Source: an uncultured virus (IMG/VR IMGVR_UViG_3300024343_000011) (taxonomy: Duplodnaviria > Heunggongvirae > Uroviricota > Caudoviricetes > Crassvirales). Taken from it: a stretch of 64,000 bases of DNA. The notes under the pieces are model-generated. The model did no database searches. It was not told the DNA's origin and saw only the letters and a list, made by a program, of their open reading frames with translations. The DNA is taken from IMG/VR virus record IMGVR_UViG_3300024343_000011. One strand, given 5' to 3'. The position numbers and the translations under genes were made by a program. Below are positions 1 through 13,506 of this stretch, one piece after another (the first letter of the stretch is position 1; the number at the start of each line of letters is the position of its first letter).

Positions 1-222
1 AAATTCTTCAATATTTTGCTCACTTGTACAATCAGTGTTATCCCCATTACAAAAAGCATTTTCAATTCTTTCCTTTTCCATTTCTTTGGCTTGTTTTTCT
101 AATTCAAATCTTTTTGCGTGAAATTCTCCAATGCAAATTATTTTACCGTGGTATTGTGCGAATAGTTTCCCAATCTCAATACCGAACCACTCCACTGCCG
201 TTTGTTGTTTATTGTTTGTCAT
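1..222 (-). CDS. partial small early protein, MTNNKQQTAVEW family (runs off window)
   Basis: Manual translation MTNNKQQTAVEWFGIEIGK...EKQAKEMEKERIENAF; ATG overlaps the TGA of the upstream ORF; paralogous to 759-965. Confidence 0.75.
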   Translation of the reverse strand, partial: MTNNKQQTAVEWFGIEIGKLFAQYHGKIICIGEFHAKRFELEKQAKEMEKERIENAFCNGDNTDCTSEQNIEEF

Positions 223-542
223 TGCTCACCTCCTCCGTAGGTTAATGGTACTTCAATTACCTGCACACCGCAATGGTCTGCATTATCCCATAAGGTTGAA
301 TCATCACAATTTAGAATCTCTAATAGATGCCTTGCTTCTTCTTCCGTTGTTTCTTTGGTATTGTAGATGATGAGAGTTCTTTTTGTGGTGATTGGTGCTA
401 AATTCTTAAGGTGTTTTTCAATCATTGATTCGTGGAATTTTTCGGGGTAATTTTTAAGGTAATCCCTAATTGCATCAGCAGTGTTTAGCAATTGTTCTTC
501 TGTATATAGTTTCATTGCCGTTTGTTGTTTATTGTTTGTCAT
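219..542 (-). CDS. hypothetical early protein (MTNNKQQTA head, TYGG tail)
   Basis: 107-aa ORF overlapping both neighbours. Confidence 0.7.
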   Translation of the reverse strand: MTNNKQQTAMKLYTEEQLLNTADAIRDYLKNYPEKFHESMIEKHLKNLAPITTKRTLIIYNTKETTEEEARHLLEILNCDDSTLWDNADHCGVQVIEVPLTYGGGEQ

Positions 543-774
543 CTCCGTATGTTTCGTTAATTAATGGGACTCCTTCAAGAATAGGTGCATTTGTTAATGG
601 TCGGTGTGCAATAATTAATTTACACGCACCTAAATCAGTTAGGTAGTTAGGGAATTTATTAATTGTCAAACCACCTTCAAGATGATATTGACCCATAAAT
701 GGTCTTACATCTTTAATGTGTTCATCACTTACAGTAAGTGCGTAGTGTTCTGTGTATATTATTTCGTCTTGCAT
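529..774 (-). CDS. hypothetical early protein
   Basis: 81-aa ORF ending ETYGDDKQ. Confidence 0.65.
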   Translation of the reverse strand: MQDEIIYTEHYALTVSDEHIKDVRPFMGQYHLEGGLTINKFPNYLTDLGACKLIIAHRPLTNAPILEGVPLINETYGDDKQ

Positions 775-965
775 TTGTTACCTCCGTAGGTTTTGTTATA
801 GTATTCATTAAAGTCAACTTTCATTAGACCAGCCTCCCAACTTTTTATGTGTTGGTCTTTTTGCATTTCTTTGGCTTGTTCAAGTATTTCTTTCATACTT
901 AAATTTGGTTTTAACATTTCTTGTTCCAACCACTCTACTGCCGTTTGTTCTTTATTGTTTGTCAT
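759..965 (-). CDS. hypothetical early protein, QTAVEWL...EQAKEM...YYNKTYG family
   Basis: 68-aa ORF with an ATGA overlap. Confidence 0.7.
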   Translation of the reverse strand: MTNNKEQTAVEWLEQEMLKPNLSMKEILEQAKEMQKDQHIKSWEAGLMKVDFNEYYNKTYGGNKCKTK

Positions 966-1177
966 AGTAAGTCTGTTTTAATTAGTGTGTATTCTACGGA
1001 CTGGTGATCGCTTGTCCAAGTGTATGTCTCTGGGTGTGTCATTGCGAACTGACCCTCTTCCTCGTGGTAGATGTCAAGTGTGTATGACAGGTCTGCCTCA
1101 GAAGGCTCTGAGTCGAATGCGCAGACGATCCCGTCTACATTCGATAGTACCCATGCGTGTCTTTTTGCCTGTCTCAT
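962..1177 (-). CDS. hypothetical protein
   Basis: 71-aa ORF coupled to its neighbours. Confidence 0.6.
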   Translation of the reverse strand: MRQAKRHAWVLSNVDGIVCAFDSEPSEADLSYTLDIYHEEEGQFAMTHPETYTWTSDHQSVEYTLIKTDLL

Positions 1178-1338
1178 CGTGCTCTGTAGTATTTAATGGT
1201 TAGATAAGTGAACCGAACAAATCCAATGCCTCCGAGTACTCCGAGGATTAGAACGATTGACATTGGTGAGTAGATCGCCCATGCTACAAAGAAAAGGCCG
1301 ATGATTACAATTAGTGCTGTGATTAGTGCGTTGAGCAT
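1174..1338 (-). CDS. small two-TM membrane protein
   Basis: MLNALITALIVIIGLFFVAW...; start reassigned to ATG 1338 after an A-rich leader. Confidence 0.6.
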   Translation of the reverse strand: MLNALITALIVIIGLFFVAWAIYSPMSIVLILGVLGGIGFVRFTYLTIKYYRAR

Positions 1339-1471
1339 TGGTTTATTTTTACTGTGTCCCCTACATTTTTCTCTTCCAACATCATCAGGCTGTAGGTCTT
1401 TCCTGTGGTGTCCTTGCATGCGTACCTGTACCCACCGCTCGGGTGTGGCATCGACGCTAAAATGATTAGTA

Positions 1472-1675
1472 CTATCGTTGTGATGCTTTCCATATAATTC
1501 TATTTAAGTATTTCTGTCCTACCCCAAGGCCACACGCAGTGCGTATGAGCCAGTAAGTCGTGCACTGATATCGTGTAACCTCCTCGTCCTTCTTCTTGTC
1601 CCATGCGATAAGCTTATCACCTATCCATGCGTACACGTATCGTTTCTTTAATTTCTTCAACAAGCGTGTCTTCAT
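1472..1675 (-). CDS. hypothetical basic protein
   Basis: MKTRLLKKLKKRY...; ATGA overlap with the upstream stop. Confidence 0.55.
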   Translation of the reverse strand: MKTRLLKKLKKRYVYAWIGDKLIAWDKKKDEEVTRYQCTTYWLIRTACGLGVGQKYLNRIIWKASQR

Positions 1676-2103
1676 TTCTCCGCGATGTTTAAGGTGATGT
1701 CTCTGCCGTCCACCAGAACAACCAAGTACATGTTGTCGCAGGCCATCATCTCTGAGTACTGCATGATGTAGTTTGCCGTGTCTTGACTTAGGTTCTCCTT
1801 GGTCGTGTGCTTGGTCGTTCCCTCTACCCACTTGTACTCATTGGGCATCGGAATGACCAGTCCGAAGCAAAAGTCATACGCAAAGCCATCGTCAGATAAG
1901 TTGTCGAGTAGTTTTACGATGTTCCCCTTCTTGGGCTTGCATGTCTGACAGATGACGACCTTGTGGGTCTCGTCTATTGAGTCTGAGATGGCATGTCCGT
2001 CACCGCATGCACATGTGTGCAGTGTTAGGATGTCTGACTGGGTGCCATGGATTTGAGACAGAAGGCTTCGAGCCTCTGCCGAGTTGGTTGCGTAGTATAT
2101 CAT
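1672..2103 (-). CDS. hypothetical protein, possible Zn-binding (CxC...CxxC)
   Basis: 143-aa ORF containing CACGDGH and CQTC. Confidence 0.6.
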   Translation of the reverse strand: MIYYATNSAEARSLLSQIHGTQSDILTLHTCACGDGHAISDSIDETHKVVICQTCKPKKGNIVKLLDNLSDDGFAYDFCFGLVIPMPNEYKWVEGTTKHTTKENLSQDTANYIMQYSEMMACDNMYLVVLVDGRDITLNIAEK

Positions 2104-2336
2104 TCTTTACAAATTGCTAGTTCTGTTTGTGAAATGAACTCGGAGAAGTATCCGTGCTCAAATAAAAAGTCCTCAAACTCCTCTGAGTTTCCCACGCTGA
2201 TTGATATCAGTGGGAATCCCTTGGAGTCTTTGCCGTCAGATGTAACGCTGAAGCATTCAGCGTAGGCCATCATGCATGGCTCTTCCACTATCACGATTGA
2301 TGGGAAGGCCTCGATTAGTATATCTTTGAATTCCAT
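2100..2336 (-). CDS. hypothetical protein
   Basis: MEFKDILIEAFP...; start reassigned to ATG 2336. Confidence 0.6.
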   Translation of the reverse strand: MEFKDILIEAFPSIVIVEEPCMMAYAECFSVTSDGKDSKGFPLISISVGNSEEFEDFLFEHGYFSEFISQTELAICKE

Positions 2337-2349
2337 ATTTCTTTTAATT

Positions 2350-2376
2350 AAAGAGCGACCCAGCAATCGCTCTTTT
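2350..2376. terminator. terminator-like hairpin
   Basis: AAAGAGCGA-N8-TCGCTCTTT with short T tracts on both strands. Confidence 0.45.
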
Positions 2377-2438
2377 ACAACAAAACACAACAATATTTCA
2401 CAACCTTTCGTTGAGGGCTAGTGCTGGCTAGCCTTTGT

Positions 2439-2476
2439 GCACGGGACGGGCTTCGAACCCTGTTCATATCCCGTGC
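2439..2476 (-). ncRNA. tRNA-like minihelix (acceptor-like stem + T-arm)
   Basis: GCACGGG-AUAUGA-AC(A)GGG-UUCGAAG-CCCGU-CCCGUGC. Confidence 0.55.
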
Positions 2477-2582
2477 TGTTCACCGCATCACCCCATGGTG
2501 CTCCACCCATGATTCTAAGGACTGGGACTCAGTCCAGTGTGCGTACATAGTGGTCAGTCATTCGACTGCCAAATTACTTTTC

Positions 2583-2598
2583 CAATATGTCAAAGAAC
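2583..2598 (-). promoter_or_regulatory. rrn-type boxA-like antitermination site
   Basis: GTTCTTTGACATATTG directly after hairpin CAAGACAT-AA-ATGTCTTG. Confidence 0.5.
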
Positions 2599-2690
2599 AT
2601 GGCAAGACATTTATGTCTTGTCCTTAACCCCAAGCGATCCGACTTGGCTTAGTACACGGGACTCGTGTAGGTGTTGTACTAGGTTGGGGA

Positions 2691-2852
2691 TTAACCCAAC
2701 TCTAGTATTTCGTATTGAGCCACATCGCTAGATGATTCTGCAATAACATTGTATGCGTGCTCCTCGGCCTCCTCCTTGCTTGGGAAGAACATCTTCCTAG
2801 ACCACAGGTCGTTTCCATCCTCGTCTTGGTATATAATCTTAAATTCAACCAT
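2691..2852 (-). CDS. hypothetical protein (not in ORF track)
   Basis: MVEFKIIYQDEDGNDLWSRKMFFPSKEEAEEHAYNV...ELG*, 53 aa; start overlaps the end of the upstream gene. Confidence 0.65.
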   Translation of the reverse strand: MVEFKIIYQDEDGNDLWSRKMFFPSKEEAEEHAYNVIAESSSDVAQYEILELG

Positions 2853-3252
2853 GTCTTAGAATTCTTAAAAAGTCGTCCGAAGTGATGAATGTTACTGCGT
2901 CGCATCCACGAAGGTTGTCGATGACTGCCTTTGGCTTAGCAAGGGGAGAGAAGAATACAAGGTCACCCCTTCTTTTCTCGAAGATAATCTCGTAGCACAC
3001 CTCGAAGTCTCTGACTATCTCGTATACGTTCACCAGTTCCGCTCCGCATAGTGCGTGAACTAATGACTGGGATGGGTACTCGATGCCGTATCTTACACTA
3101 TCATCGCTGAAGTCGTGACCATCCTCGCAAAGAGACTCGCTCTCGTCGTCGTGTAGTTCGTAGACCTCGTAGTTGGCCTCGTGTAGGTACTTGGCAACCT
3201 TGGGTTGCACTATGTACCATGTGAATCCGTCTTGTGTTGTGAATGTGTTCAT
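2845..3252 (-). CDS. hypothetical protein
   Basis: MNTFTTQDG...VYELHDDESESLC; start follows a promoter. Confidence 0.65.
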   Translation of the reverse strand: MNTFTTQDGFTWYIVQPKVAKYLHEANYEVYELHDDESESLCEDGHDFSDDSVRYGIEYPSQSLVHALCGAELVNVYEIVRDFEVCYEIIFEKRRGDLVFFSPLAKPKAVIDNLRGCDAVTFITSDDFLRILRHG

Positions 3253-3261
3253 ATCTGTACG

Positions 3262-3293
3262 CAATATTAGTTACTATCTTGTTTATAACCTAA
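3262..3293 (-). promoter_or_regulatory. Bacteroidota-type early promoter
   Basis: TTAG-N20-TAATATTG. Confidence 0.55.
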
Positions 3294-3305
3294 TTTATTT
3301 GTCAT

Positions 3306-3503
3306 TTAATTGTCATTTAATAGCACAATTGATGTGAGCATGCTATTGTTTTCGTCGTGCAAGTCCTCGAACACAAAGTTGATTGGTGTTACGTCTGAGT
3401 CCTCGTCATGTCTGAAGTTTATCTCGATGAGAGATAGGTCGTTGCCGTCTGACTCAATCTCATTGAGGAACTGGCGAAGTTGTAGTGCTGTTAAATTGCT
3501 CAT
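3306..3503 (-). CDS. hypothetical acidic protein
   Basis: MSNLTALQLRQFLNEIE... Confidence 0.55.
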   Translation of the reverse strand: MSNLTALQLRQFLNEIESDGNDLSLIEINFRHDEDSDVTPINFVFEDLHDENNSMLTSIVLLNDN

Positions 3504-3505
3504 GA

Positions 3506-3775
3506 TTAGTCCTCCCATCCATTAGACCAATACCTTACAGCGTTGGCGTACGTTCCCTTTGTGCATCCTTTTAACTCATCCCGTGACGGGATAACGTTTC
3601 CGTAGTAGTCGGTGAATGATTTCTTTGGTAGCATGCAGATACCCATCTCGAGCAGTCGCATTGCCTCGCGTCCCATTGAGCCCTCCATCTTCCAAACGGA
3701 TCCGTTGTTGATGAGTCGTTGCATGTAGTCAACTCCCGCTGACTTTTGTCTTGAGTAAATTGTTTGTATGTTCAT
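3506..3775 (-). CDS. hypothetical phage protein
   Basis: QRLINNGSVWKMEGSMGREAMRLLEMG, a motif typical of small phage proteins. Confidence 0.65.
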   Translation of the reverse strand: MNIQTIYSRQKSAGVDYMQRLINNGSVWKMEGSMGREAMRLLEMGICMLPKKSFTDYYGNVIPSRDELKGCTKGTYANAVRYWSNGWED

Positions 3776-3984
3776 ATCTTGTTTTCTTTAACCCATATAA
3801 CCATAAGTTCATTTATTTCACCAATGATTGTTTGTCTGTACTCTGAAAAGAATTTTGTTAACATCTGATTGCAGTCCTCATCATTTAATGATGGAGGAAT
3901 TCCGTTGGCCATTTCAATTGCATTTCGCATGTCGTTGGCGTGCCATGATAGGCAAGAGTCGGTGATAAAGTTTTTGTTGTTCAT
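3772..3984 (-). CDS. hypothetical protein
   Basis: MNNKNFITDSCLSWHANDM...; start 20 nt after the minihelix. Confidence 0.65.
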   Translation of the reverse strand: MNNKNFITDSCLSWHANDMRNAIEMANGIPPSLNDEDCNQMLTKFFSEYRQTIIGEINELMVIWVKENKI

Positions 3985-4004
3985 GTCTATTTGTTTTTTA
4001 TTTG

Positions 4005-4047
4005 AACCACGGAGGGGAGTCGAACCCCTCTCGTTCCTTTCGTGGTT
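4005..4047 (-). ncRNA. tRNA-like minihelix (acceptor-like stem + T-arm)
   Basis: AACCACG-AAAGGAACGA-GAGGGG-UUCGACU-CCCCUC-CGUGGUU; perfect stems and a canonical T-loop. Confidence 0.65.
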
Positions 4048-4360
4048 AGTCCTCGTCGTGTCCAAGCATCTGAGCCAGTGCCTTGTGCATGTCGAGTGGG
4101 ATAAAGTCCTCGACGTGGCTGTACTCTTTTAACTTGCCCTTGATGTGCCATACTAGGTCTTGCAGTTCGCTCACCTCGTTAGGGCTGGGCTCCACCAACT
4201 CGATGTTGGTGTCCTCGACGATGATGTTGCACTGCTCCAACTCTTGGTAGTTTATGGTGTCCTTGTTGTCGTCCAACCAATCGTGTACCTCGATGGTGTT
4301 CTCTGCATCTACTACCAACTCTGTGGCGTAGGTTCTGCTGATGATTACGTTGTATTTCAT
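4046..4360 (-). CDS. hypothetical protein
   Basis: 104-aa ORF with TAATG coupling. Confidence 0.65.
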   Translation of the reverse strand: MKYNVIISRTYATELVVDAENTIEVHDWLDDNKDTINYQELEQCNIIVEDTNIELVEPSPNEVSELQDLVWHIKGKLKEYSHVEDFIPLDMHKALAQMLGHDED

Positions 4361-5061
4361 TATTTTAGTTTGTTGATTAGGTTGATGATGTTGTCCAATT
4401 GGTTCATGTGAATCTCGTAGTAGTCGTCGCTCCTTGAGTGGTTGTGCAGTTCGTTGAACTCGTCCATCGCCACGTCCAATGTGTGTAGCATGGCATCGAA
4501 GTCCTCGGACTTGTAGTCGCCTAGGCCGGCCTGTTCTGGCTCGTCCGATGTCGCTCTTCTGAGTATCGATGTCGCTCTCTCGTGCCCCTCGACCATCAAC
4601 TCATCCACGAAGTTGTACAAGTCATTGTAACTTGGCCTTGCATAGTCGACCTCTTCTGGCTCGTCTCCCTCTCTCATGAGGCGGTACTCGGATCCACTAG
4701 CGCAGTCCCATATAGCCTCTTGGTCATGGTGCTGTCCTAGAACGATGGCGACCTCCTTGGTCTGCACGTTCTCTGAGATGTCAAAGATGAATCGGCCAGC
4801 GTTGACCCAGCATCCCATGTAGTAGTTCGGGTCGGCCAATTGCTCGGCATGGCGGAGGAAGTAAGACCTACCGAATGCGATAAGGTCGCAACCACTTGGA
4901 GCCGTCTCCTCGTATCCCTTGATGGATACCATGAAGCCTTGGTCGGGGTTGTGGTCGCCCGTGTTGATGTTGTAAGAGAAACCGATGTGGTTTGTTTCAG
5001 CGTTGCGCAAGTGTGCGATGAGTGTGTTGTGGCTAGTGCCCATTACGATAGTTGATTTCAT
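4360..5061 (-). CDS. hypothetical early protein; N-domain resembles a domain in the giant virion protein
   Basis: GFSYN...GFMVS...MGCW...FDIS...AIVLGQHHDQEAIWD; start reassigned to ATG 5061 after a promoter. Confidence 0.7.
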   Translation of the reverse strand: MKSTIVMGTSHNTLIAHLRNAETNHIGFSYNINTGDHNPDQGFMVSIKGYEETAPSGCDLIAFGRSYFLRHAEQLADPNYYMGCWVNAGRFIFDISENVQTKEVAIVLGQHHDQEAIWDCASGSEYRLMREGDEPEEVDYARPSYNDLYNFVDELMVEGHERATSILRRATSDEPEQAGLGDYKSEDFDAMLHTLDVAMDEFNELHNHSRSDDYYEIHMNQLDNIINLINKLK

Positions 5062-5084
5062 GTCAGTTGTTATTAAAGTGTTCA

Positions 5085-5116
5085 CAATGTTAGTTATAAT
5101 ATCCGTACTTTCCAAA
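5085..5116 (-). promoter_or_regulatory. Bacteroidota-type early promoter
   Basis: TTTG-N20-TAACATTG. Confidence 0.6.
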
Positions 5117-5117
5117 T

Positions 5118-5516
5118 TTATTTTCTTGATTCTATCCAAAGTTTAGCGCGATAGTTCATCTCTGACTCAGACATTACCACGTCGATGAAGTCGGTTCCCT
5201 CTAGGTTCACCACGTTCAACTCTATGATTTGGTTTCCCTCGTCGACAGATACGTGGTATCCGTTCTCCTCGAACCATAGCCATGCCATCTGAAATTCAGT
5301 CCTACTTGGGGCTTGGCTCATGACTTTGTGTAGGTCGGTATCTTGGAAGTGCATCTCGCTTCCGTCCAAGAAGTACAAGGTCTGACGTGTGCCGTCGATG
5401 GTCTCCACGATGTGGGCTCTGACCTCGCCGTGCTCGATTACTTCGTACATGCTGTCGTCCTCGCTAGAGATGATGTAAGGCCATTTTACTTCGGGTAATT
5501 TGTTTAAGTGCTTCAT
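5118..5516 (-). CDS. hypothetical protein
   Basis: MKHLNKLPEVKW...; start 20 nt after the hammerhead cleavage site. Confidence 0.7.
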   Translation of the reverse strand: MKHLNKLPEVKWPYIISSEDDSMYEVIEHGEVRAHIVETIDGTRQTLYFLDGSEMHFQDTDLHKVMSQAPSRTEFQMAWLWFEENGYHVSVDEGNQIIELNVVNLEGTDFIDVVMSESEMNYRAKLWIESRK

Positions 5517-5530
5517 GTTCTTGTTGTTTT

Positions 5531-5586
5531 GGTTAAGATGGGGTGCTTCCACCCCATTTCGACTATTAAAGTCTCATCAGTTAACC
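5531..5586 (-). ncRNA. type I hammerhead ribozyme (AUC cleavage)
   Basis: GGUUAA-CUGAUGA-GACU-UUAAU-AGUC-GAAA-UGGGGUG-GAAG-CACCCCA-UC-UUAACC: complete core and three stems. Confidence 0.9.
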
Positions 5587-5880
5587 TTATTTTGATACGA
5601 TGCTATGCTCTTTGATATGTATGGCACAATCATATTCGCAGTTGATTGTTGTGCGCTCGTATCGTGTTCCTCCTTTGGCCGATTGACGTAATACCTTTGT
5701 CAAGTTCGCATAGTTGTAGGGGATGTCCTTGAACGTGTAGATTGGAGAGGTCTCCTCGATTAAGGTCACCGATAATGGCGTGTAACCTAGTTTAGCGATG
5801 CCATTGTACATGGCTTTGATGTTGGTGTACACGTCCGTGTGAAGGCCGTCCTCACTTAGATTGATTGAATAGATTTTCAT
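5587..5880 (-). CDS. hypothetical protein flanked by two hammerheads
   Basis: 97-aa ORF. Confidence 0.7.
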   Translation of the reverse strand: MKIYSINLSEDGLHTDVYTNIKAMYNGIAKLGYTPLSVTLIEETSPIYTFKDIPYNYANLTKVLRQSAKGGTRYERTTINCEYDCAIHIKEHSIVSK

Positions 5881-5894
5881 GTCGTTGTTGTGTT

Positions 5895-5961
5895 GGTTAA
5901 GACATGGATGAGTTCGCTATGCTCACCCATGTTTCGGTCATTCAGACCTCCTCAGTTAACC
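5895..5961 (-). ncRNA. type I hammerhead ribozyme (GUC cleavage)
   Basis: GGUUAA-CUGAGGA-GGUC-UGAAU-GACC-GAAA-CAUGGGUGAG-N9-CUCAUCCAUG-UC-UUAACC. Confidence 0.9.
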
Positions 5962-6228
5962 TTGGGTGATTGCTTCCTTGATGGCCTTTAGTTCAGCCCT
6001 CATTTGTGTGGCCGTCCCCTTGATGCCAAAGTAAGCCTTGACGTCCGATATCTTCCAATGACGATTGGGCTTCATTCCAATTTCGTACAAGCCTAGGTCT
6101 CTGATTGTAACGATTAGATTGTAGTACCCCTTTGGAGTAACTTTTCCGTTGATGTTGATGGCCTTACTCTCGTCGATTAGGTCTGCGAAGAATTGGCTTT
6201 TTCCGTTGATGATTTGTTGTGTGTTCAT
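5956..6228 (-). CDS. first gene of the early operon, hypothetical
   Basis: 90-aa ORF; its stop codon lies inside hammerhead stem I. Confidence 0.7.
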   Translation of the reverse strand: MNTQQIINGKSQFFADLIDESKAININGKVTPKGYYNLIVTIRDLGLYEIGMKPNRHWKISDVKAYFGIKGTATQMRAELKAIKEAITQG

Positions 6229-6251
6229 ATCGTGTGTGTCTTATGACATCA

Positions 6252-6283
6252 CAATGTTACAACCGATTGTTGACAATTACTAA
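6252..6283 (-). promoter_or_regulatory. Bacteroidota-type early promoter
   Basis: TTAG-N20-TAACATTG. Confidence 0.55.
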
Positions 6284-6379
6284 CCTATCAACATTTATTT
6301 TCTCATATTGCAATCTTTTTACAATTCCATGACAATTCATTTAATGCGTAGATTCTCAAGGCCTTGCAGATGGCGGGTT

Positions 6380-7401: not shown

Positions 7402-7980
7402 ATGGAACTAACTAGGGAGACCGTCATGGCCGCCTGCTATAAGCTGGGATATAGGTACTTTGAGAATGGAGTTTACAACATGAATGTAATTGGTGTCAAA
7501 AACTCAGCACCGGGGAAGAAGGTAACGAACATCTTCGACGACTGGATGACATTGTCTTACAAGGATGACAAGGGTGTGTGGCAGTTCCACAAGTGGGCAT
7601 GCACGACTGATCCGGGCACGAAGGCGGTAAAGCAGTTCCACAATGCGGGCGGTGTTGCTAGAGTCGTTCCGGGGCAGTACCCTGCCAGCCACTTTGTTGG
7701 TCTTCACCAGGGGAAGTACAAGGCACTTAAGCAGTGCGGGCCTGTAAAGGTATACAGGGACTCGAACAAGGACATGGTCTTCGACGAGACCAAGGTTGAC
7801 ACGGGGATCTTTGGTATCAACATCCACCACGCAGGCGCCGACTCGTCGGTGGTAGAGAACTGGTCTGAGGGATGTCAGGTATTTAAACGGATAAAGGACT
7901 TCAATGAGTTCATGCGGATCGTGCAGTTGGACAAGGGCGAGAAGTGGACATACACATTGATTGAGAGTAAAAATTTATAA
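7402..7980 (+). CDS. putative endolysin/peptidoglycan peptidase (L,D-transpeptidase-like)
   Basis: GINIHH...WSEGCQV His/Cys motif. Confidence 0.6.
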   Translation: MELTRETVMAACYKLGYRYFENGVYNMNVIGVKNSAPGKKVTNIFDDWMTLSYKDDKGVWQFHKWACTTDPGTKAVKQFHNAGGVARVVPGQYPASHFVGLHQGKYKALKQCGPVKVYRDSNKDMVFDETKVDTGIFGINIHHAGADSSVVENWSEGCQVFKRIKDFNEFMRIVQLDKGEKWTYTLIESKNL

Positions 7981-8784: not shown

Positions 8785-10356
8785 ATGATCGTAAAACAAG
8801 TAGACTTCGGCATCGAAGCAAGGGAGAAATTAGTATCTGGAATAGATATTATCGCAAATGCTGTTAAAAGCACGCTAGGCGCTAGGGGCCAGACAGTCTT
8901 AATTGAATCAGACCAGCACACTCATGGCTTGGCGATTACAAAAGACGGGGTCACGGTCGCAAGATCTATCTATTTAGAGGACGCTACCCAAAACTTAGCC
9001 GTTATGATGGTAAAAGAGGCATCCGAGAAGACGGCAACAGCTGCAGGCGACGGAACGACAACTTCTATCGTACTAACCCAAGGGTTAATCCATGGCTCGC
9101 AGCAGTTCATGAAGGCCGAGGACAACCCAACAAAGGTGCTGAGAGAGGTAAAAGAGCTAGCACTGTCAGTTGCGCAGGCATTGGACAGCATGGCTATCCC
9201 CGTTACAGACGATTCTATGGCCTCTGTAGCCACGATCTCCGCAAACAATGACCCAGAGCTAGGGCAGATCATCTCAGACGCTTACAGCATGGTCGGAAAA
9301 GACGGTGTGGTGACCGTTGAGACGTCTCAAAGCTCAAAGACTTACTCTGAGGTGGTATCTGGCATGAAGCTGGGCCGCGGATGGATGTCAAAGTACTTCG
9401 TGACTGACCAGAAGAAGGGCGAGGCGATCCTAGAGGACTGCTACATCTTAATCTCAGACCAGGAGATTACTTCATTGAACAATATCGAGCACCTGCTGGC
9501 ACCGGTTGTGCAGAGCGGTAAGAGCATACTAATTATCGCCGAGATGTCGGAGAACGCACTGAACTCTCTTAACCTTAACAGGCTGAAGGGTGTGATCAGG
9601 GCATGCGCTATCGTTCCACCGAGCTTCGGTCACATGAGATCCGAGATCATGGAGGACATCGCTGCGGCTACCGGGGCACGATTCATCTCTGACGGAACCG
9701 GAGACAATCTGTCTCTGGTCTCGTTTACTGATTTAGGCCATGCCCAGAAGGTGGTGGTCGGAAAGGAGTCGACGATTATCATCACCGACAACGATCTATC
9801 AGAAGAACTTGCTTCTAGAATCGAGGGCATCCGCAATAACCTTGCAGAGGCTACCAACGAGGGTGTGAAGAAGTTCTTGGAGGAGAGGCTCGCTAACCTT
9901 GCGGGCGGCGTTGGCGTTATCTACGTCGGAGCGCAGAGCGATGTCGAGATGAAGGAGAAGAGGGACCGTGTAGAGGACGCAGTGTACGCGACCAAGGCGG
10001 CGATGGAGGGAGGCATTCTTCCTGGCGGTGGTATTGCACTGCTTAACATAGCCGGCGAGATCTGCGGATGCTCTACAGCTAAGAGCATTATCAAGTACGC
10101 ACTGCAGCAGCCATTCAACGTGATCCTAGAGAACGGCGGCTATGACCCGAACGAGGTAAAGGGGGACATTGCCCTAAACTATCAAAATAGTTTCGGGTAT
10201 GGATTCGACGTGAAAGAGGGTGTTGTAGGGAATATGATCGAAATGGGAATCATCGACCCATTAAAGGTTACCAAGAGCGCATTGGAGAACGCTGTCAGCG
10301 TTGCAACGACGATCTTGAGCACCAACTGTATCATCACTAACGTAAGAGCAAAATGA
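8785..10356 (+). CDS. groEL: chaperonin GroEL (phage-encoded)
   Basis: VKSTLG, ITKDGVTVA, AGDGTTT, ERLANLAGG, RVEDA, GIIDPLKV motifs; no GGM tail. Confidence 0.97.
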   Translation: MIVKQVDFGIEAREKLVSGIDIIANAVKSTLGARGQTVLIESDQHTHGLAITKDGVTVARSIYLEDATQNLAVMMVKEASEKTATAAGDGTTTSIVLTQGLIHGSQQFMKAEDNPTKVLREVKELALSVAQALDSMAIPVTDDSMASVATISANNDPELGQIISDAYSMVGKDGVVTVETSQSSKTYSEVVSGMKLGRGWMSKYFVTDQKKGEAILEDCYILISDQEITSLNNIEHLLAPVVQSGKSILIIAEMSENALNSLNLNRLKGVIRACAIVPPSFGHMRSEIMEDIAAATGARFISDGTGDNLSLVSFTDLGHAQKVVVGKESTIIITDNDLSEELASRIEGIRNNLAEATNEGVKKFLEERLANLAGGVGVIYVGAQSDVEMKEKRDRVEDAVYATKAAMEGGILPGGGIALLNIAGEICGCSTAKSIIKYALQQPFNVILENGGYDPNEVKGDIALNYQNSFGYGFDVKEGVVGNMIEMGIIDPLKVTKSALENAVSVATTILSTNCIITNVRAK

Positions 10357-11655: not shown

Positions 11656-11706
11656 TACACAACTCTATCATGTGACTTTGTCACATAATATTCTTATCTT
11701 TGCAAT

Positions 11707-13506
11707 ATGGGATCAACCTTATTTAATACCACCCCTCAGAACACGTACCCCTCGCTGATAAAAATTGGCGACAACCTACCACTGAGCGGTACACTAAAGC
11801 GCCTGTCAGACGGCAATGGCAATGACCTGCCTCTGCTGGTATCTACCACAGCATTGACCAACTATGGTGCAGGTGGTGTCGCTACCAACACTGCATTTGG
11901 TGCGGCTGCCTTGGACTCAAACACAACTGGATCTAATAACGTAGCACTTGGACTGAACGCATTAACTGCTAACGTGAGTGGCACTACCAACACAGCGATT
12001 GGCTCACTTGCACTTGAAAACAACACCAATAGCAATAACACCGCATTGGGTTATAGGTCGCTTAGAGCCAACACAAGCGGAAGTTTGAACACCGCAGTAG
12101 GTGTAGATTCTTTGTTTACAAATACAACGGGTACTGATAATACCGCCATTGGTTATCAATCGTTAAATAACAATACGTCGGGATTAAGAAACGCAGCATT
12201 TGGTAATTATGCTCAATACTCAAAAACTACGGGTAATGATAATACTGCTATTGGCTATAATAGTTCTGCTTATTTGTCAACGGGTGGAAATAATACTTCG
12301 TTAGGTTCAGATTCTTTATATAGTGTGGGTGCTGCTTCAAATAACGTAGCATTAGGAAAATCCGCCTTATTCAACAACACCGCCTCCAACAACACCGCCG
12401 TAGGTTTTGAGGCGGGGTATAGTAATACGTCAAATACATCGATAACTGCAATTGGTTATCAAGCGTTACGTTTAAATAATGGGGGAGGAAGTAATACAGC
12501 AATGGGTTTTCAATCTTTAACTTCTAACACAACAGGAGGTAATAATACTGCTGTTGGTAATTCATCTTTGCTATTTAATACATCTGGTGACGTAAATACT
12601 GCTGTTGGTTCTGTTGCGTTACGTGATAATTCAACGGGAACAGATAACGTGGCTATCGGTTTTCAAGCATTAGTACAAAATAGTACGGGAAGTAATAATG
12701 TGGGTTTGGGTAATCAAGCGTTACTTGGAAACTTTACGGGTAATAATAATACCGCAGTTGGAAAAAGTGCTTTACAATCCAACACCGCCTCCAACAACAC
12801 CGCCGTAGGTTTTGAAGCGGGGTTGAGTAATACGAGTGGAACGGAAATCACCGCCGTTGGTTTTCAATCGTTGCGATTAAGTACGAGTGCGGGTAATACC
12901 GCTTTGGGTTACATAAGTGGTTTTCAAAATTCAACGGGTGCGAATAATACTTTTTTGGGTGGAAGCGTTGCAATAAGCAATACAACGGGTTCAAGTAATG
13001 TTGCAGTAGGTCAAGCAAGTTTGTTGAGTAATGTTAGTGGTTCAAATAACGTATCAATAGGTCGTGATTCATTACGTTCCAACACCGCCTCCAACAACAC
13101 CGCCGTAGGTTACGAGGCGGGGTATAGTAATACGAGTGGAACGAATGTAACTGCTATGGGTTATCAAGCGTTGAAAGCGAGTACGGGTAGTAGTAATACC
13201 GCCGTAGGTTTTTCAGCAATGGTTTCAAATACAACGGGAGTAGGTAATACCGCTATTGGTGATTCTACAATGTCGGGAAGTACAACGGGGAATTATAATG
13301 TATGTATCGGTGGAGGTCAAACTAATAATAACAATCAACAAGTATCAATGATTGGCGTAAATGATACCGCAACAGGAAACAATCAAATGCGTTTTGGTTC
13401 ATCTGCGTTTCCAAATGGTGCAGTTACCACCGAAGTAGTCGTATCGGACAAAACGTGGTCTGTGTTTATTAACGGCACTGCATACAAAATTTTACTTAAG
13501 GCATAA
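11707..13506 (+). CDS. fibre/adhesin with ~14-aa NTAxGxxAL repeats
   Basis: Tandem NTA(V/I/L)G repeats, YadA-head-like beta-roll. Confidence 0.8.
   Translation: MGSTLFNTTPQNTYPSLIKIGDNLPLSGTLKRLSDGNGNDLPLLVSTTALTNYGAGGVATNTAFGAAALDSNTTGSNNVALGLNALTANVSGTTNTAIGSLALENNTNSNNTALGYRSLRANTSGSLNTAVGVDSLFTNTTGTDNTAIGYQSLNNNTSGLRNAAFGNYAQYSKTTGNDNTAIGYNSSAYLSTGGNNTSLGSDSLYSVGAASNNVALGKSALFNNTASNNTAVGFEAGYSNTSNTSITAIGYQALRLNNGGGSNTAMGFQSLTSNTTGGNNTAVGNSSLLFNTSGDVNTAVGSVALRDNSTGTDNVAIGFQALVQNSTGSNNVGLGNQALLGNFTGNNNTAVGKSALQSNTASNNTAVGFEAGLSNTSGTEITAVGFQSLRLSTSAGNTALGYISGFQNSTGANNTFLGGSVAISNTTGSSNVAVGQASLLSNVSGSNNVSIGRDSLRSNTASNNTAVGYEAGYSNTSGTNVTAMGYQALKASTGSSNTAVGFSAMVSNTTGVGNTAIGDSTMSGSTTGNYNVCIGGGQTNNNNQQVSMIGVNDTATGNNQMRFGSSAFPNGAVTTEVVVSDKTWSVFINGTAYKILLKA
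12376..13111 (+). repeat. three identical 31-nt direct repeats
   Basis: AACACCGCCTCCAACAACACCGCCGTAGGTT at 12376, 12781 and 13081. Confidence 0.9.

Follow-up and report, generated by a model that had tools for sequence, protein, structure and literature searches.

In bacteriophage T7, RNase III cuts the polycistronic early mRNA at intergenic structures, giving separately stable and translatable messages. Animal mitochondrial transcripts are punctuated by tRNAs, and in MALAT1 (mascRNA) and MEN-beta the ends are set by RNase P and RNase Z, drawn in by a tRNA-like fold that is part of the longer RNA. Perreault et al. put forward in 2011 the idea that hammerheads process phage messages, describing clustered consensus-core hammerheads between (pro)phage genes, often several per region (PMC3088659); a 2019 review restates the proposal as untested (PMC6765202). 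Plant mitochondrial t-elements are tRNA-like, carry a conserved GGTTCRANYCC T arm and adjoin mRNA ends; they are known or suggested signals for RNase Z and RNase P, a role also put forward for acceptor-like stem-loops alone (Forner et al. 2007, PMC1920247). RNA viruses have type I hammerheads positioned just a few nucleotides 5' of an initiation codon (at 7 nt in one example). The 5' end produced by self-cleavage was mapped in vivo, and without the catalytic base translation failed to occur normally; that study explicitly set aside DNA bacteriophage matches (PMC13725137).

The window analysed here, a stretch of 64 kb, encodes a terminase nearest to those of Flavobacterium, Cellulophaga and Tenacibaculum phages, and its source is probably a podovirus-like phage of Flavobacteriia. 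An operon of small genes on its minus strand is punctuated by structured RNA elements. Pfam searches gave one weak match among the 18 proteins, which are of unassigned function. The features are as follows.

219..6228, minus strand: early-type operon of 18 small genes (gene map)
5895..5961, minus strand: hammerhead ribozyme HH1, type I, with open stem I GGUUAA/UUAACC (sequence, descriptor, fold, model R1)
5881..5900, minus strand: HH1 leader, 20 nt, UUAACCAACACAACAACGAC, preceding ATG 5880; predicted unpaired probability 0.81
5531..5586, minus strand: hammerhead ribozyme HH2, layout as HH1, core CUGAUGA, descriptor stems of 6/4/8 bp
5517..5536, minus strand: HH2 leader, 20 nt, UUAACCAAAACAACAAGAAC, preceding ATG 5516; unpaired probability 0.97
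5062..5117, minus strand: promoter-like spacer, 56 nt, with TTTG, 20 nt and TAACATTG; kept in relatives
4005..4047, minus strand: tRNA-like minihelix, a tRNA top half (descriptor, minimum free energy (MFE) fold, model R2)
3985..4004, minus strand: minihelix leader, 20 nt (discriminator-like C plus 19 nt), CAAAUAAAAAACAAAUAGAC, preceding ATG 3984; unpaired probability 0.96
3253..3305, minus strand: promoter-like spacer, 53 nt, with a TAATATTG box; kept in relatives
2337..2690, minus strand: conserved ORF-free block, 354 nt, containing the fourth element and several covarying hairpins
2439..2476, minus strand: fourth element, a tRNA-like hairpin with acceptor GCACGGG/CCCGUGC and GGGUUCGAAGCCC T arm (folding)

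Sequence reading and a descriptor scan, which found exactly two hammerheads in the 64-kb window, both give HH1 and HH2 three helices and a perfect catalytic core, reproducing the coordinates of the original prediction. HH1 reads GGUUAA / CUGAGGA / stem II GGUC-UGAAU-GACC / GAAA / stem III of 10-11 bp / UC^ / UUAACC (stems I/II/III of 6/4/11 bp in the descriptor scan), with a G at core position 7 (1/83 in the family). The upstream stop TAA (5958-5956) sits within stem I of HH1, and that of HH2 (5589-5587) directly adjoins stem I; the predicted cuts fall between 5901 and 5900 and between 5537 and 5536, respectively. Both MFE folds have the expected shape (-24.6 kcal/mol, z -3.28 for HH1; z -4.10 for HH2). 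Against R1, a covariance model that draws on 12 unrelated phage contigs and leaves the window out, HH1 scored 41.6 bits (E 1.4e-9, filters off; 54.7 bits with default filters) and HH2 61.3 bits (E 2.5e-15), and the best other score in the window was 9.9 bits. Among 200 dinucleotide shuffles there were three weak matches (0.015 per window), all weaker than HH1 and HH2. No Rfam family reached its gathering score on the window elements; in the suggested check against the Rfam hammerhead models, RF03152 matched HH2 at 25.1 bits, below the gathering score of 56.3.

Phage loci totalling 1.18 Mb contained 136 R1 matches, 121 of them distinct, with the core (C3-A9, G12-A14, H17) kept in every one. In the family alignment 99.7% of cells are paired and 364 are changed on both sides, giving a covariation score of 0.543 compared with 0.110 when shuffled (0 of 500 shuffles reach 0.543) and at most 0.049 with slid partners. 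When candidates were chosen by sequence pattern only, 101/140 folded, and none of the 140 did once their inserts were shuffled. Outside the imposed pattern, the unpaired positions are conserved as A at -1 and A at +1 (82/83 each) and as U-N-A-N-U in loop II (67/67, 64/67 and 61/67), which is how a tertiary contact between stem I and loop II would look. Stem I reads GGUUAA in 78/87, a near-invariance unusual for a helix. Hammerheads at the same junctions in relatives keep the fold with different stems. Judged by sequence and covariation, HH1 and HH2 are genuine members of a large, strongly covarying hammerhead family.

The element at 4005..4047 stacks a 7-bp acceptor (AACCACG/CGUGGUU) on a 6-bp T stem (GAGGGG/CCCCUC) with T loop UUCGACU and a 10-nt linker, AAAGGAACGA, containing GG; the stop TAA (4048-4046) overlaps acceptor bases 1-2. 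Its MFE fold has the expected shape, ARAGORN did not call it a tRNA, and it scored 51.6 bits against model R2, of whose seven seeds the window supplies one. At the same junction, the relative L139 has a minihelix of entirely different stem sequence, again with a 20-nt leader, and the descriptor, the fold and this counterpart together bear out the predicted element. The descriptor gave 35 minihelix matches (26 strong), as against 3-12 (1-8 strong) in 10 shuffles. In the 22 R2 matches, 98.5% of cells are paired, 12 of 13 pairs have changed on both sides and the covariation score is 0.954 compared with 0.217 shuffled, figures that lean towards structure because the alignment was model-fitted and 7 of the 22 rows are seeds. 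Five minihelices lie within 2.6 kb in L240, one directly 5' of the homologue of window gene 3775-3506. On this sequence evidence, the minihelix is a conserved tRNA top half with compensatory change both at the same junction and family-wide.

In the window, HH1, HH2 and the minihelix each take in or touch the upstream stop codon and have a leader of exactly 20 nt up to the ATG, as predicted, and the close relatives have leaders of 18-21 nt; family-wide, the claim of exactly 20 nt widens to 18-24 nt. Among 87 hammerheads from 66 non-redundant loci, 76 have an ORF; its ATG lies 18-24 nt past the cut in 56/76, and the upstream stop falls between -3 and +7 relative to stem I in 57/76; GGUUAA supplies it as TAA in 21 hammerheads and CUGA as UGA in 15. 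Of the 21 minihelices with an ORF, 12 have leaders of 18-23 nt and the other nine have leaders of 5, 7 or 34-112 nt. The leaders are A-rich, G-poor (G 0.01 and 0.05) and predicted to be unpaired. Thus, a stop-proximal start and a leader of ~20 nt common to both kinds of element are supported in many unrelated phages. Spacing of this length could also be the minimum ribosome room beside any folded RNA in a compact genome, cut or uncut. Where loci carry both kinds, hammerheads share the strand of the minihelices (24 examined, none opposite), and in L230 a single operon has the two one after the other on the same strand. The idea of interchangeable modules holds to the extent that, in four pairs of homologous downstream genes from three gene families, one member follows a hammerhead and the other, from a different phage, follows a tRNA-like element, but at least one pair reflects insertion or deletion of a gene with its hammerhead, not clean replacement.

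The fourth element, at 2439..2476, had been listed with the other three. It is a real tRNA-like hairpin, conserved with a consensus fold in an alignment (A1) with L131, L136 and L139, and had no R2 match at E up to 5. The next ATG is 102 nt and a terminator-like hairpin away, the hairpin (~2345-2375) being followed by UUUAAUU. The surrounding 354-nt block gave only a weak partial DUF2693 match in Rfam (16.5 bits). The fourth element is a domain of a larger, separate non-coding RNA and not an intercistronic spacer.

We propose that the operon message is cut at the hammerhead and minihelix elements to yield leadered downstream messages, a reading we consider somewhat more probable than otherwise. 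The structures, their conservation, covariation and placement are observed; from these we infer that cutting takes place, which enzyme acts and how message stability or translation might be affected. Transcription from a small number of promoters would give RNAs that each span several of the small early genes on the minus strand. Two junctions each have a type I hammerhead merged with the end of the preceding gene, the stop lying within or directly before stem I, and this hammerhead would cut itself during transcription after GUC/AUC. The upstream message would keep the whole folded ribozyme at its 3' terminus, ending in a 2',3'-cyclic phosphate, and the weak stem I (-4.1 kcal/mol) would melt once cut. 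Downstream, the message would start at UUAACCAA... and carry a 5'-hydroxyl; this 20-nt leader, unstructured, rich in A and poor in G, may suit ribosomes working without Shine-Dalgarno pairing. At the third junction the tRNA top half occupies the same kind of slot. Since the spacing from its 3' end to the ATG equals that from hammerhead cut to ATG, and its 5' end overlaps the stop, a cut on the 3' side is most likely, possibly by a host RNase Z-type enzyme that matures tRNA 3' ends; the upstream message would then carry the minihelix as its 3' cap. RNase Z homologues were found in 3 of 3 Bacteroidota genomes with this hammerhead type, one above the curated cut-off. Cutting by RNase P at the 5' side is possible; in the window it would take two bases of the stop codon, destroying the upstream stop.

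The original prediction that the early polycistron is diced into monocistrons does not hold. Elements occur at only 3 of the 17 same-strand junctions of the operon, 10 of which overlap, and two conserved spacers (5062..5117 and 3253..3305) look like internal promoters, with boxes that we take to resemble the Bacteroidota promoter consensus; at the first, the transcript start would fall ~17-20 nt 5' of ATG 5061. Only 61 + 10 of the 1563 same-strand junctions in the wider locus set have one. Early gene expression in these phages cannot in general depend on processing.

The gains and losses seen among relatives bear on a different reading, in which the elements are mainly borders of mobile gene cassettes and cleavage is secondary or serves the cassette. 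Short homologies from the hammerhead ends (A-GGUUAACUGA... and ...UCUUAACCAA) and the minihelix ends would let phages swap, insert or delete units of element, leader and gene; T4-type phages offer a comparison in their promoter-stem-loop cassettes. A hammerhead of L131 with a stem III almost identical to that of HH1 lies at a different site, splitting the homologue of gene 5061-4360 into genes of 128 and 162 aa. L131, L135 and L136 add a hammerhead and a gene of 69-76 aa after the 5516-5118 homologue, exactly the unit absent from the window, and L225 is without the small gene and hammerhead that precede the shared 507-aa gene in L163. The nearly invariant stem I would also suit this explanation. 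However, there is strong purifying selection on the core, on pairing in stems II and III and on unpaired tertiary-type positions, which recombination does not need; hammerheads of relatives at the same junction keep the fold with different stems, and the tight stop/start codon link points to a role in expression. We therefore think it unlikely that cassette borders are the main function, an idea that is in any case compatible with message cutting.

It is distinctly improbable, in our view, that the elements act uncut, as folded insulators that block exonucleases arriving from the 3' side, keep the translation of adjacent genes separate or adjust how ribosomes gain access, with the ~20-nt spacing being the 30S footprint beside a structure: such a role has no need of the invariant catalytic core, yet all 136 model matches keep it, and the uncut state locks the first 6-8 nt of the leader in stem I. 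Favouring it, MW202828.1, the nearest database phage, has 11 perfect copies of a plain 16-nt palindromic hairpin followed by 16-23 nt spacing, with no hammerhead and no minihelix within the 50,000 bases examined, and the promoter-like spacers of the window would likewise give leaders of ~20 nt. Alternatively, the minihelices may be tRNA mimics unconnected with message processing, such as decoys or substrates of host tRNA-directed enzymes or defence nucleases, targets of CCA-adding enzyme, decayed tRNA genes or attachment-site remnants. Their canonical T loop and invariant linker GG could mimic the D-loop/T-loop elbow, CCA is encoded directly after the acceptor in some relatives (L238; L139 2487-2600), and larger three-armed versions exist in L163, L197 and L225. 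They cannot decoy anticodon nucleases because they have no anticodon arm; their presence in up to five copies per genome, always on the coding strand and intergenic, argues against an attachment-site or relic origin; compensatory change indicates selection on the fold; and stop-proximal starts with the 18-23 nt leaders tie them to gene boundaries. We regard this explanation as quite unlikely.

Read as message cutting, the arrangement fits the older proposal that long phage messages are divided into parts translated independently. The hammerheads of Perreault et al. 2011 likewise have a consensus core and lie between phage genes; the passages of that paper considered here do not mention the near-fixed stem I GGUUAA/UUAACC, the ribozyme-embedded stop codon, the 18-24 nt leader, the loop II U-N-A-N-U or the sharing of slots with minihelices, all present here. 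A literature search returned no paper on tRNA-like minihelices in hammerhead slots. Their closest analogue is the t-element, as described organellar, mostly near-cloverleaf and in several cases with mapped RNA ends, whereas the phage minihelices belong to a bacterial virus, consist of a 43-nt top half, keep a tight link to the stop and start codons and are known from sequence. The RNA-virus hammerheads, as reported, belong to eukaryotic viruses with cap-independent initiation, unlike those of this bacterial virus. The MALAT1 mascRNA and MEN-beta system is eukaryotic and nuclear, unlike the phage element, which scored 15.8 bits against RF01684 (mascRNA; gathering score 42.5) and is therefore not a member. 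T7 relies on long double-stranded hairpins and a single host enzyme, whereas self-cleaving RNA and tRNA-end enzymes are proposed here, and no such long hairpin was seen at the three element junctions. RiboJ-type ribozyme insulators and tRNA-spaced guide RNA arrays are engineered to standardise 5' ends and separate transcript units; they use the same two kinds of module but are man-made, and the phage arrangement would be a natural counterpart of these synthetic ribozyme and tRNA insulators.

We identified two hammerhead ribozymes (HH1 and HH2) and a tRNA-like minihelix at gene junctions of an operon in the window. Direct reading of the sequence confirmed that both hammerheads lie on the minus strand, as stated in the original prediction. 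The features discussed here are listed below.

Features of the window and a related hammerhead in a cultured phage
6228 down to 219, minus strand: operon of 18 small genes without known domains
5961-5895, minus strand: HH1, GGUUAA, CUGAGGA, GGUC-UGAAU-GACC and GAAA, stem III of 10 bp plus A15.1-U16.1, then UC^UUAACC (caret, predicted cut)
5586-5531, minus strand: HH2, GGUUAA, CUGAUGA, GACU-UUAAU-AGUC and GAAA, stem III of 7 bp plus A15.1-U16.1, then UC^UUAACC
4047-4005, minus strand: minihelix, acceptor-like stem of 7 bp (AACCACG/CGUGGUU), 10-nt linker, 6-bp stem, loop UUCGACU
2337-2690, minus strand: structured block of 354 nt without ORFs, containing a fourth element (2476-2439)
~6229-6300 (upstream of the first gene), 5117-5062 and 3305-3253, minus strand: promoter-like spacers, TTTG, about 20 nt, TAAYATTG
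8997-9054 of L261 (NC_055854.1): family hammerhead in cultured phage elemoE_6-9C, 42 bits with our hammerhead covariance model R1, stem I GGCAAA/UUUGUC

The hammerhead core, as set out in an excerpt of Perreault et al. 2011 (PMC3088659), comprises C3 U4 G5 A6 N7 G8 A9, G12 A13 A14, the pair A15.1-U16.1 and H17 (not G). HH1 reads CUGAGGA...GAAA...UC and HH2 reads CUGAUGA...GAAA...UC, and the core-adjacent pairs 10.1-11.1, 1.1-2.1 and 15.1-16.1 contain no mispair in either. Three helices close on the core, with stems of 6/4/11 bp in HH1 and 6/4/8 bp in HH2, and the minimum free energy (MFE) folds agree, the three-way junction being the MFE fold in both (z -3.3 for HH1 and -4.1 for HH2). A structural descriptor of our own, combining the core with the three stems, recovered only HH1 and HH2 from both strands of the 64 kb, also when relaxed; 200 dinucleotide shuffles gave three weak matches in total, none equalling the real hammerheads in strength. 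HH1 and HH2 have every sequence and pairing feature of the hammerhead class, and we predict that they self-cleave. The predicted cuts would leave UUAACCAACACAACAACGAC-AUG and UUAACCAAAACAACAAGAAC-AUG, respectively, each with a leader of 20 nt between cut and start codon. The upstream stop is a UAA within stem I for HH1 and lies immediately 5' of stem I for HH2.

Rfam 15, searched with all models including the hammerhead families (a check proposed with the original prediction), returned nothing for the whole window at gathering score or at E up to 5. When a 501-nt slice was searched, the sole hammerhead-family match was RF03152 (RAGATH-1-hammerhead), to HH2 only, at 25.1 bits vs a threshold of 56.3. 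As no Rfam family reaches its threshold for the hammerheads or the minihelix, all three elements are outside every curated family by score. R1, which was built from 12 sequences, all from contigs other than the window, detected both hammerheads. HH2 scored 61.3 bits (E 2.5e-15); for HH1 the score was 41.6 bits (E 1.4e-9) when filters were off and 54.7 bits under default filters. The next-best match in the window scored 9.9 bits.

The large ORFs of the window match phage terminase, portal, structural protein, GroEL-like chaperonin, ribonucleotide reductase and helicase/primase families. The chaperonin is encoded at 8785-10356, and in MW202828.1 and NC_055854.1 the gene after GroEL is annotated as GroES-type; another ORF, at 41708-51391, encodes 3227 aa. 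No RNA end-healing enzyme (kinase, ligase or RtcB-type) was found among the 38 of 83 ORFs scanned with Pfam. From the other 45, 13 were scanned against PHROGs, and ORF 7402-7980 was included in both scans. The terminase is 68.9% identical to that of the uncultured podovirus MW202828.1 and about 42% identical to Flavobacterium phage terminases, and phages of Cellulophaga, Tenacibaculum and Maribacter also match (89 matching records). Because these matches point to phages of the four genera, the host is most likely a member of the Flavobacteriia. A blastn search of region 2300-6300 against 50,697 phage records gave no match. We found neither a hammerhead nor a minihelix in the 50,000 bases examined of MW202828.1, the closest phage in the databases. 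Positions 43745-49889 of that genome contain 11 perfect copies of the 16-nt palindrome GTGTCGTTAACGACAC, where 0 are expected, and several copies closely follow a stop codon, with 16-23 nt left to the ATG of the next early gene. The palindrome could be an operator or a further, third type of junction element.

A family pattern whose sole fixed parts are stem I, the core, GAAA and UC-UUAACC occurred in at least 129 stretches in IMG/VR. Among 185,579 species genomes it occurred at only seven loci, mostly on short contigs from metagenome bins, so the family is essentially borne by phages. Of 140 distinct pattern matches, 101 fold with a stem II of at least 4 bp and a stem III of at least 5 bp, vs 0 of 140 after shuffling of the inserts, and the pattern matches include 24 stem II and 45 stem III identities. 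R1 gave 136 matches (121 distinct) over 1.18 Mb of phage loci, with 99.7% of cells paired, 364 cells altered on both sides and both-side changes at 10 of 15 pairs. The original prediction was open to refutation by a lack of structural covariation in relatives; for the hammerheads covariation is present, with a score of 0.543 vs 0.110 in shuffles (none of 500 reaching 0.543) and at most 0.049 with slid partners. Also, hammerheads of relatives at the same junctions as those of the window have different stems.

Several positions left free by the pattern are nevertheless kept, specifically an A just 5' of stem I (82/83), A then A 3' of stem I (82/83 and 70/83) and a loop II of the form U-N-A-N-U (67/67, 64/67 and 61/67). 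Both HH1 and HH2 carry the flanking A residues and this loop. The conservation of these unpaired bases suggests the contact between stem I and loop II that gives natural hammerheads their speed at cellular Mg2+.

Placement was analyzed for 87 hammerheads in 66 non-redundant loci (930 kb), the next ORF being counted if it had at least 40 aa. Such an ORF follows 76 hammerheads (the other 11 have none downstream), and its ATG is 18-24 nt past the cut in 56 of these; the remaining leaders are 16, 25-34, 44-45 and 64-65 nt. For 57 of the 76, the upstream stop codon falls at offsets between -3 and +7 relative to stem I. It is the UAA of GGUUAA in 21 cases, the UGA of CUGA in 15, a UAG completed by the first G in 12 and a UAA just before the ribozyme in 9; thus, the 5' strand of the ribozyme gives stops in two frames. 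The original prediction gave exactly 20 nt for each leader, which holds for all three window elements, but leaders in close relatives are 18-21 nt (L131: 21, 19, 20 and 18; L135: 20, 20 and 20; L136: 19, 21 and 20; L139: 20; L numbers designate loci of other phages). The exact value is therefore a local one inside a narrow family range.

The phage elemoE_6-9C, a Flavobacterium phage that infects Flavobacterium sp. BAL314, carries a family hammerhead. A 35-aa gene, gp65 (L261 8962-9069), is annotated over it on the opposite strand, and this ORF is probably spurious. Gene callers put spurious ORFs on top of these elements, which makes the elements relevant to annotation.

The minihelix resembles the top half of a tRNA. 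Its 7-bp and 6-bp stems stack, the T stem joining the 3' acceptor strand with no intervening base, in both the descriptor and the MFE fold, and it has the defining features of t-elements and minihelices, an acceptor stacked on a T stem (12-13 bp) and a 7-nt T loop of the form UUCRANY. It shares its first two bases with the stop codon UAA (4048-4046), and 20 nt lie between the minihelix and the AUG at 3984.

Other identities were considered for this element. ARAGORN found no tRNA or tmRNA in the window, and a tRNA gene is ruled out because only a 10-nt linker joins the acceptor and T stems, which precludes a cloverleaf. The same program found neither in 10 of 11 relatives; in the remaining one, L144, it called a tRNA at 11664-11735, adjoining the GroEL-like gene of this distant relative; the anticodon has four bases (taag) and the type is undetermined. 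A mascRNA scored 15.8 bits vs a threshold of 42.5 in a short slice. A PreQ1-I riboswitch at 3985-4034 was rejected, as it scored 20.9 bits vs 39, required an 11-nt insertion and would have a loop of 7 nt where that class has a large loop followed at once by an A-rich tail. No U run that would indicate a terminator follows on the coding strand, the match in the terminator scan being to the opposite strand. Attachment sites and tRNA relics were rejected on account of the multiple copies, strand bias and covariation of minihelices.

At the junction that follows the homologue of gene 4360-4046, L131 and L136 have the same minihelix with loop changes, and L139 has a minihelix with unlike stems (UCCCAAG/CUUGGGA and GUCAG/CUGAC), a 20-nt leader and a linker core, AAAGGAA, in common with that of the window. 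A minihelix descriptor, requiring a UUCRANY T loop, a T stem of 4 bp or more and an immediately adjacent acceptor of 6 bp or more, gave 35 matches (26 strong) in the 66 loci vs 3-12 (1-8 strong) in ten shuffles; 3 of the 35 overlap ARAGORN tRNAs. From seven ungapped 43-nt examples, including that of the window, we built a minihelix covariance model, R2, setting aside mixed-length MAFFT alignments that were structurally inconsistent. R2 had 22 matches in 1.24 Mb, with 98.5% paired, both-side changes at 12 of 13 pairs and a covariation score of 0.954 vs 0.217 in shuffles; these figures are biased towards the structure because the alignment was fitted to the model. R2 misses the fourth element and the minihelix type of L139 and L238, which has a 13-nt linker, so the model covers less than the whole minihelix family. 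The linker GG is invariant among the R2 seeds and might stand in for the guanines of the D loop, which in tRNA dock on the T loop.

One locus, L240, has five minihelices within 2.6 kb and zero hammerheads; its T stems are ATCGGG/CCTGAT (two of five), GAGTGG/CCACTC, CCGATG/CATCGG and TATCAG/CTGATA, and one of these minihelices directly precedes the homologue of window gene 3775-3506. Among 24 minihelices tabulated, hammerheads of the same locus are always on the same strand, never the opposite one, and the upstream stop is at most about 25 nt away in most. The distance from 3' end to ATG is 18-23 nt in 12 of the 21 that have an ORF, and 5, 7, 34, 34, 36, 37, 44, 63 and 112 nt in the other nine. 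Minihelices of the GAACUG type form a subfamily with the stop codon 9-10 nt upstream and a C run, usually CCCCC, immediately 5' of the acceptor (L161, L198, L229, L230 and L240). Elements that resemble tRNA and encode CCA, at 2487-2600 of L139 (minus strand) and 1468-1516 of L238, end 2-5 nt before the next ATG; that of L139 has a four-armed fold and no ARAGORN call.

Hammerheads and minihelices occupy a comparable slot. The distance from hammerhead cut to AUG equals that from minihelix 3' end to AUG, and the 5' sides of both overlap the upstream stop. On one strand of L230, a hammerhead (10001-10050) is followed by minihelices at about 10928, 11444, 12028 and 12714. Leaders of both kinds are A-rich and G-poor (minihelix: A 0.54, C 0.31, U 0.13, G 0.01; hammerhead past UUAACC: A 0.57, U 0.27, C 0.10, G 0.05), vs about 0.3/0.2/0.3/0.2 for the loci overall. 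All three leaders in the window are predicted to be unpaired (0.81-0.97).

The proposal that the two kinds are interchangeable held in part. Among 124 unique pairs of element and downstream ORF, four pairs from three gene families have a hammerhead vs a tRNA-like element before homologues. The clearest concerns a 507-aa protein (55% identity) in L163/L188 vs L225, where the loci in fact differ in whether they have a small gene together with a hammerhead. In the 26 loci with a homologue of gene 3775-3506, no hammerhead replaces the minihelix of the window, and any element in the gene-free spacer immediately preceding that homologue (or preceding the w10-w11 pair) is a minihelix.

Minihelices composed of an acceptor and T arm can serve as substrates of RNase P and RNase Z. 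Given the equal AUG spacing and the shared overlap of the 5' side with the stop, the simplest parallel to the hammerhead would be RNase Z-like cleavage 3' of the minihelix, following the C at 4004, which resembles a discriminator base. The upstream message would then keep the fold, as with a cleaved hammerhead. A cut by RNase P at the 5' side would fall inside the stop UAA in the window clade; as the stop lies 9-10 nt upstream in other minihelix families, this argument holds for the window alone. All three Bacteroidota genomes with this hammerhead have RNase Z homologues, and one homologue exceeds the curated cut-off. Stem I has -4.1 kcal/mol as a duplex and should melt once cleaved.

The fourth element was predicted to be a further module of the same kind. 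It does fold as a tRNA-like hairpin, but it is part of the 354-nt block, its next ATG is 102 nt away and R2 does not match it. The core of the block is nearly invariant among the window, L131, L136 and L139, vs 45-94% identity for the flanking proteins. It contains covarying hairpins (GGCAGUC...GACUG vs GGCGGUC...GACCG; GGCUAG...CUAGCC vs GGUCAG...CUGACC), a long-range helix and a terminator-like hairpin, and the tRNA-like part has an additional small arm in L136 and L139. No Rfam family matched the block, and a DUF2693 match in a slice was weak and sub-threshold. The block is a separate structured RNA, and we speculate that its tRNA-like domain could set one end of it.

The original prediction that the operon is diced into monocistrons is not borne out, as 10 of its 17 junctions overlap and elements are present at only three. 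Across the 66 loci, a hammerhead is present at 61 and a minihelix at 10 of 1563 same-strand junctions delimited with a crude gene caller, and 54 of 268 gaps of 45-120 nt carry an element. Given how few junctions have one, any processing would be selective rather than general. The promoter-like spacers resemble Bacteroidota promoters; those at 5117-5062 and 3305-3253 are conserved in L131, L136 and L139, and two of the three sites would yield leaders of about 20 nt as well. A 52-nt intergenic spacer at 1420-1471 (minus strand) has a GC-rich hairpin, CCAC...GGUGG, that is no better than shuffles (z -0.64); it is missing in relatives, whose genes overlap there.

Alternatively, the elements may act as joints for recombination, in a role either secondary to RNA processing or rival to it. 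In L131, a hammerhead at 3992-4058 whose stem III is nearly identical to that of HH1 is at another place than HH1 and splits the homologue of gene 5061-4360 into genes of 128 and 162 aa, the latter with a new N-terminal part. Also, an additional hammerhead with its small gene is present in L131, L135 and L136 and missing from the window. These observations support the recombination role.

Overall, the hammerheads, the minihelix and their placement features are real. As a tentative reading, which we consider rather doubtful in its full extent, Bacteroidota phages and some others may share an RNA punctuation that consists of a stop codon, an exchangeable cutter, a leader of about 20 nt and an AUG. 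The cutter would be a hammerhead with a stop in its 5' strand, or a tRNA top half that uses the host tRNA 3'-end enzyme. With either cutter, the upstream message would retain the folded element as a 3' cap, and a new 5' end would arise at an AUG distance suited to ribosomes blind to Shine-Dalgarno sequences, and the cassettes might also be recombination joints that shuffle early genes.

The role of bacterial and phage hammerheads has been open since thousands were found in 2011. Excerpts of Perreault et al. 2011 (PMC3088659) describe clustered hammerheads that flank prophage genes, suggest processing to operon- or gene-length mRNAs and report a halovirus transcript with its 5' end mapped at most 3 nt from the hammerhead cut; a passage in a 2019 review (PMC6765202) calls the mRNA-processing idea still unproven. 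The hammerheads of the window are new members of this known class, with a role already proposed. What sets this locus apart as a variant worth testing is the partnership with a tRNA top half, the stop codon within the ribozyme and the narrow range of leader lengths. The processing idea becomes exact, with predictions of cut sites at nucleotide level, an embedded stop, a leader of 18-24 nt and, in the same slot, a tRNA mimic dependent on a host enzyme. The cultured pair elemoE_6-9C and Flavobacterium sp. BAL314, which carries the family hammerhead, makes testing possible. Full-text literature searches on tRNA-like elements or minihelices in phage mRNA processing, and on hammerheads in flavobacterial phages, yielded no description of the minihelix slots.

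A 2026 paper (PMC13725137) shows that hammerheads just 5' of ORFs enable translation in RNA viruses, and according to PMC6847099 Bacteroidia ribosomes ignore Shine-Dalgarno sequences and rely on unstructured leaders. If true, the punctuation reading would bear on start-site choice by such ribosomes and would give the ribozyme and tRNA insulators of synthetic biology a precedent in nature. It would also be the equivalent, in a bacterial virus, of the tRNA punctuation of mitochondria; in plant mitochondria, according to an excerpt of Forner et al. 2007 (PMC1920247), t-elements are RNase Z and RNase P signals at mRNA ends.
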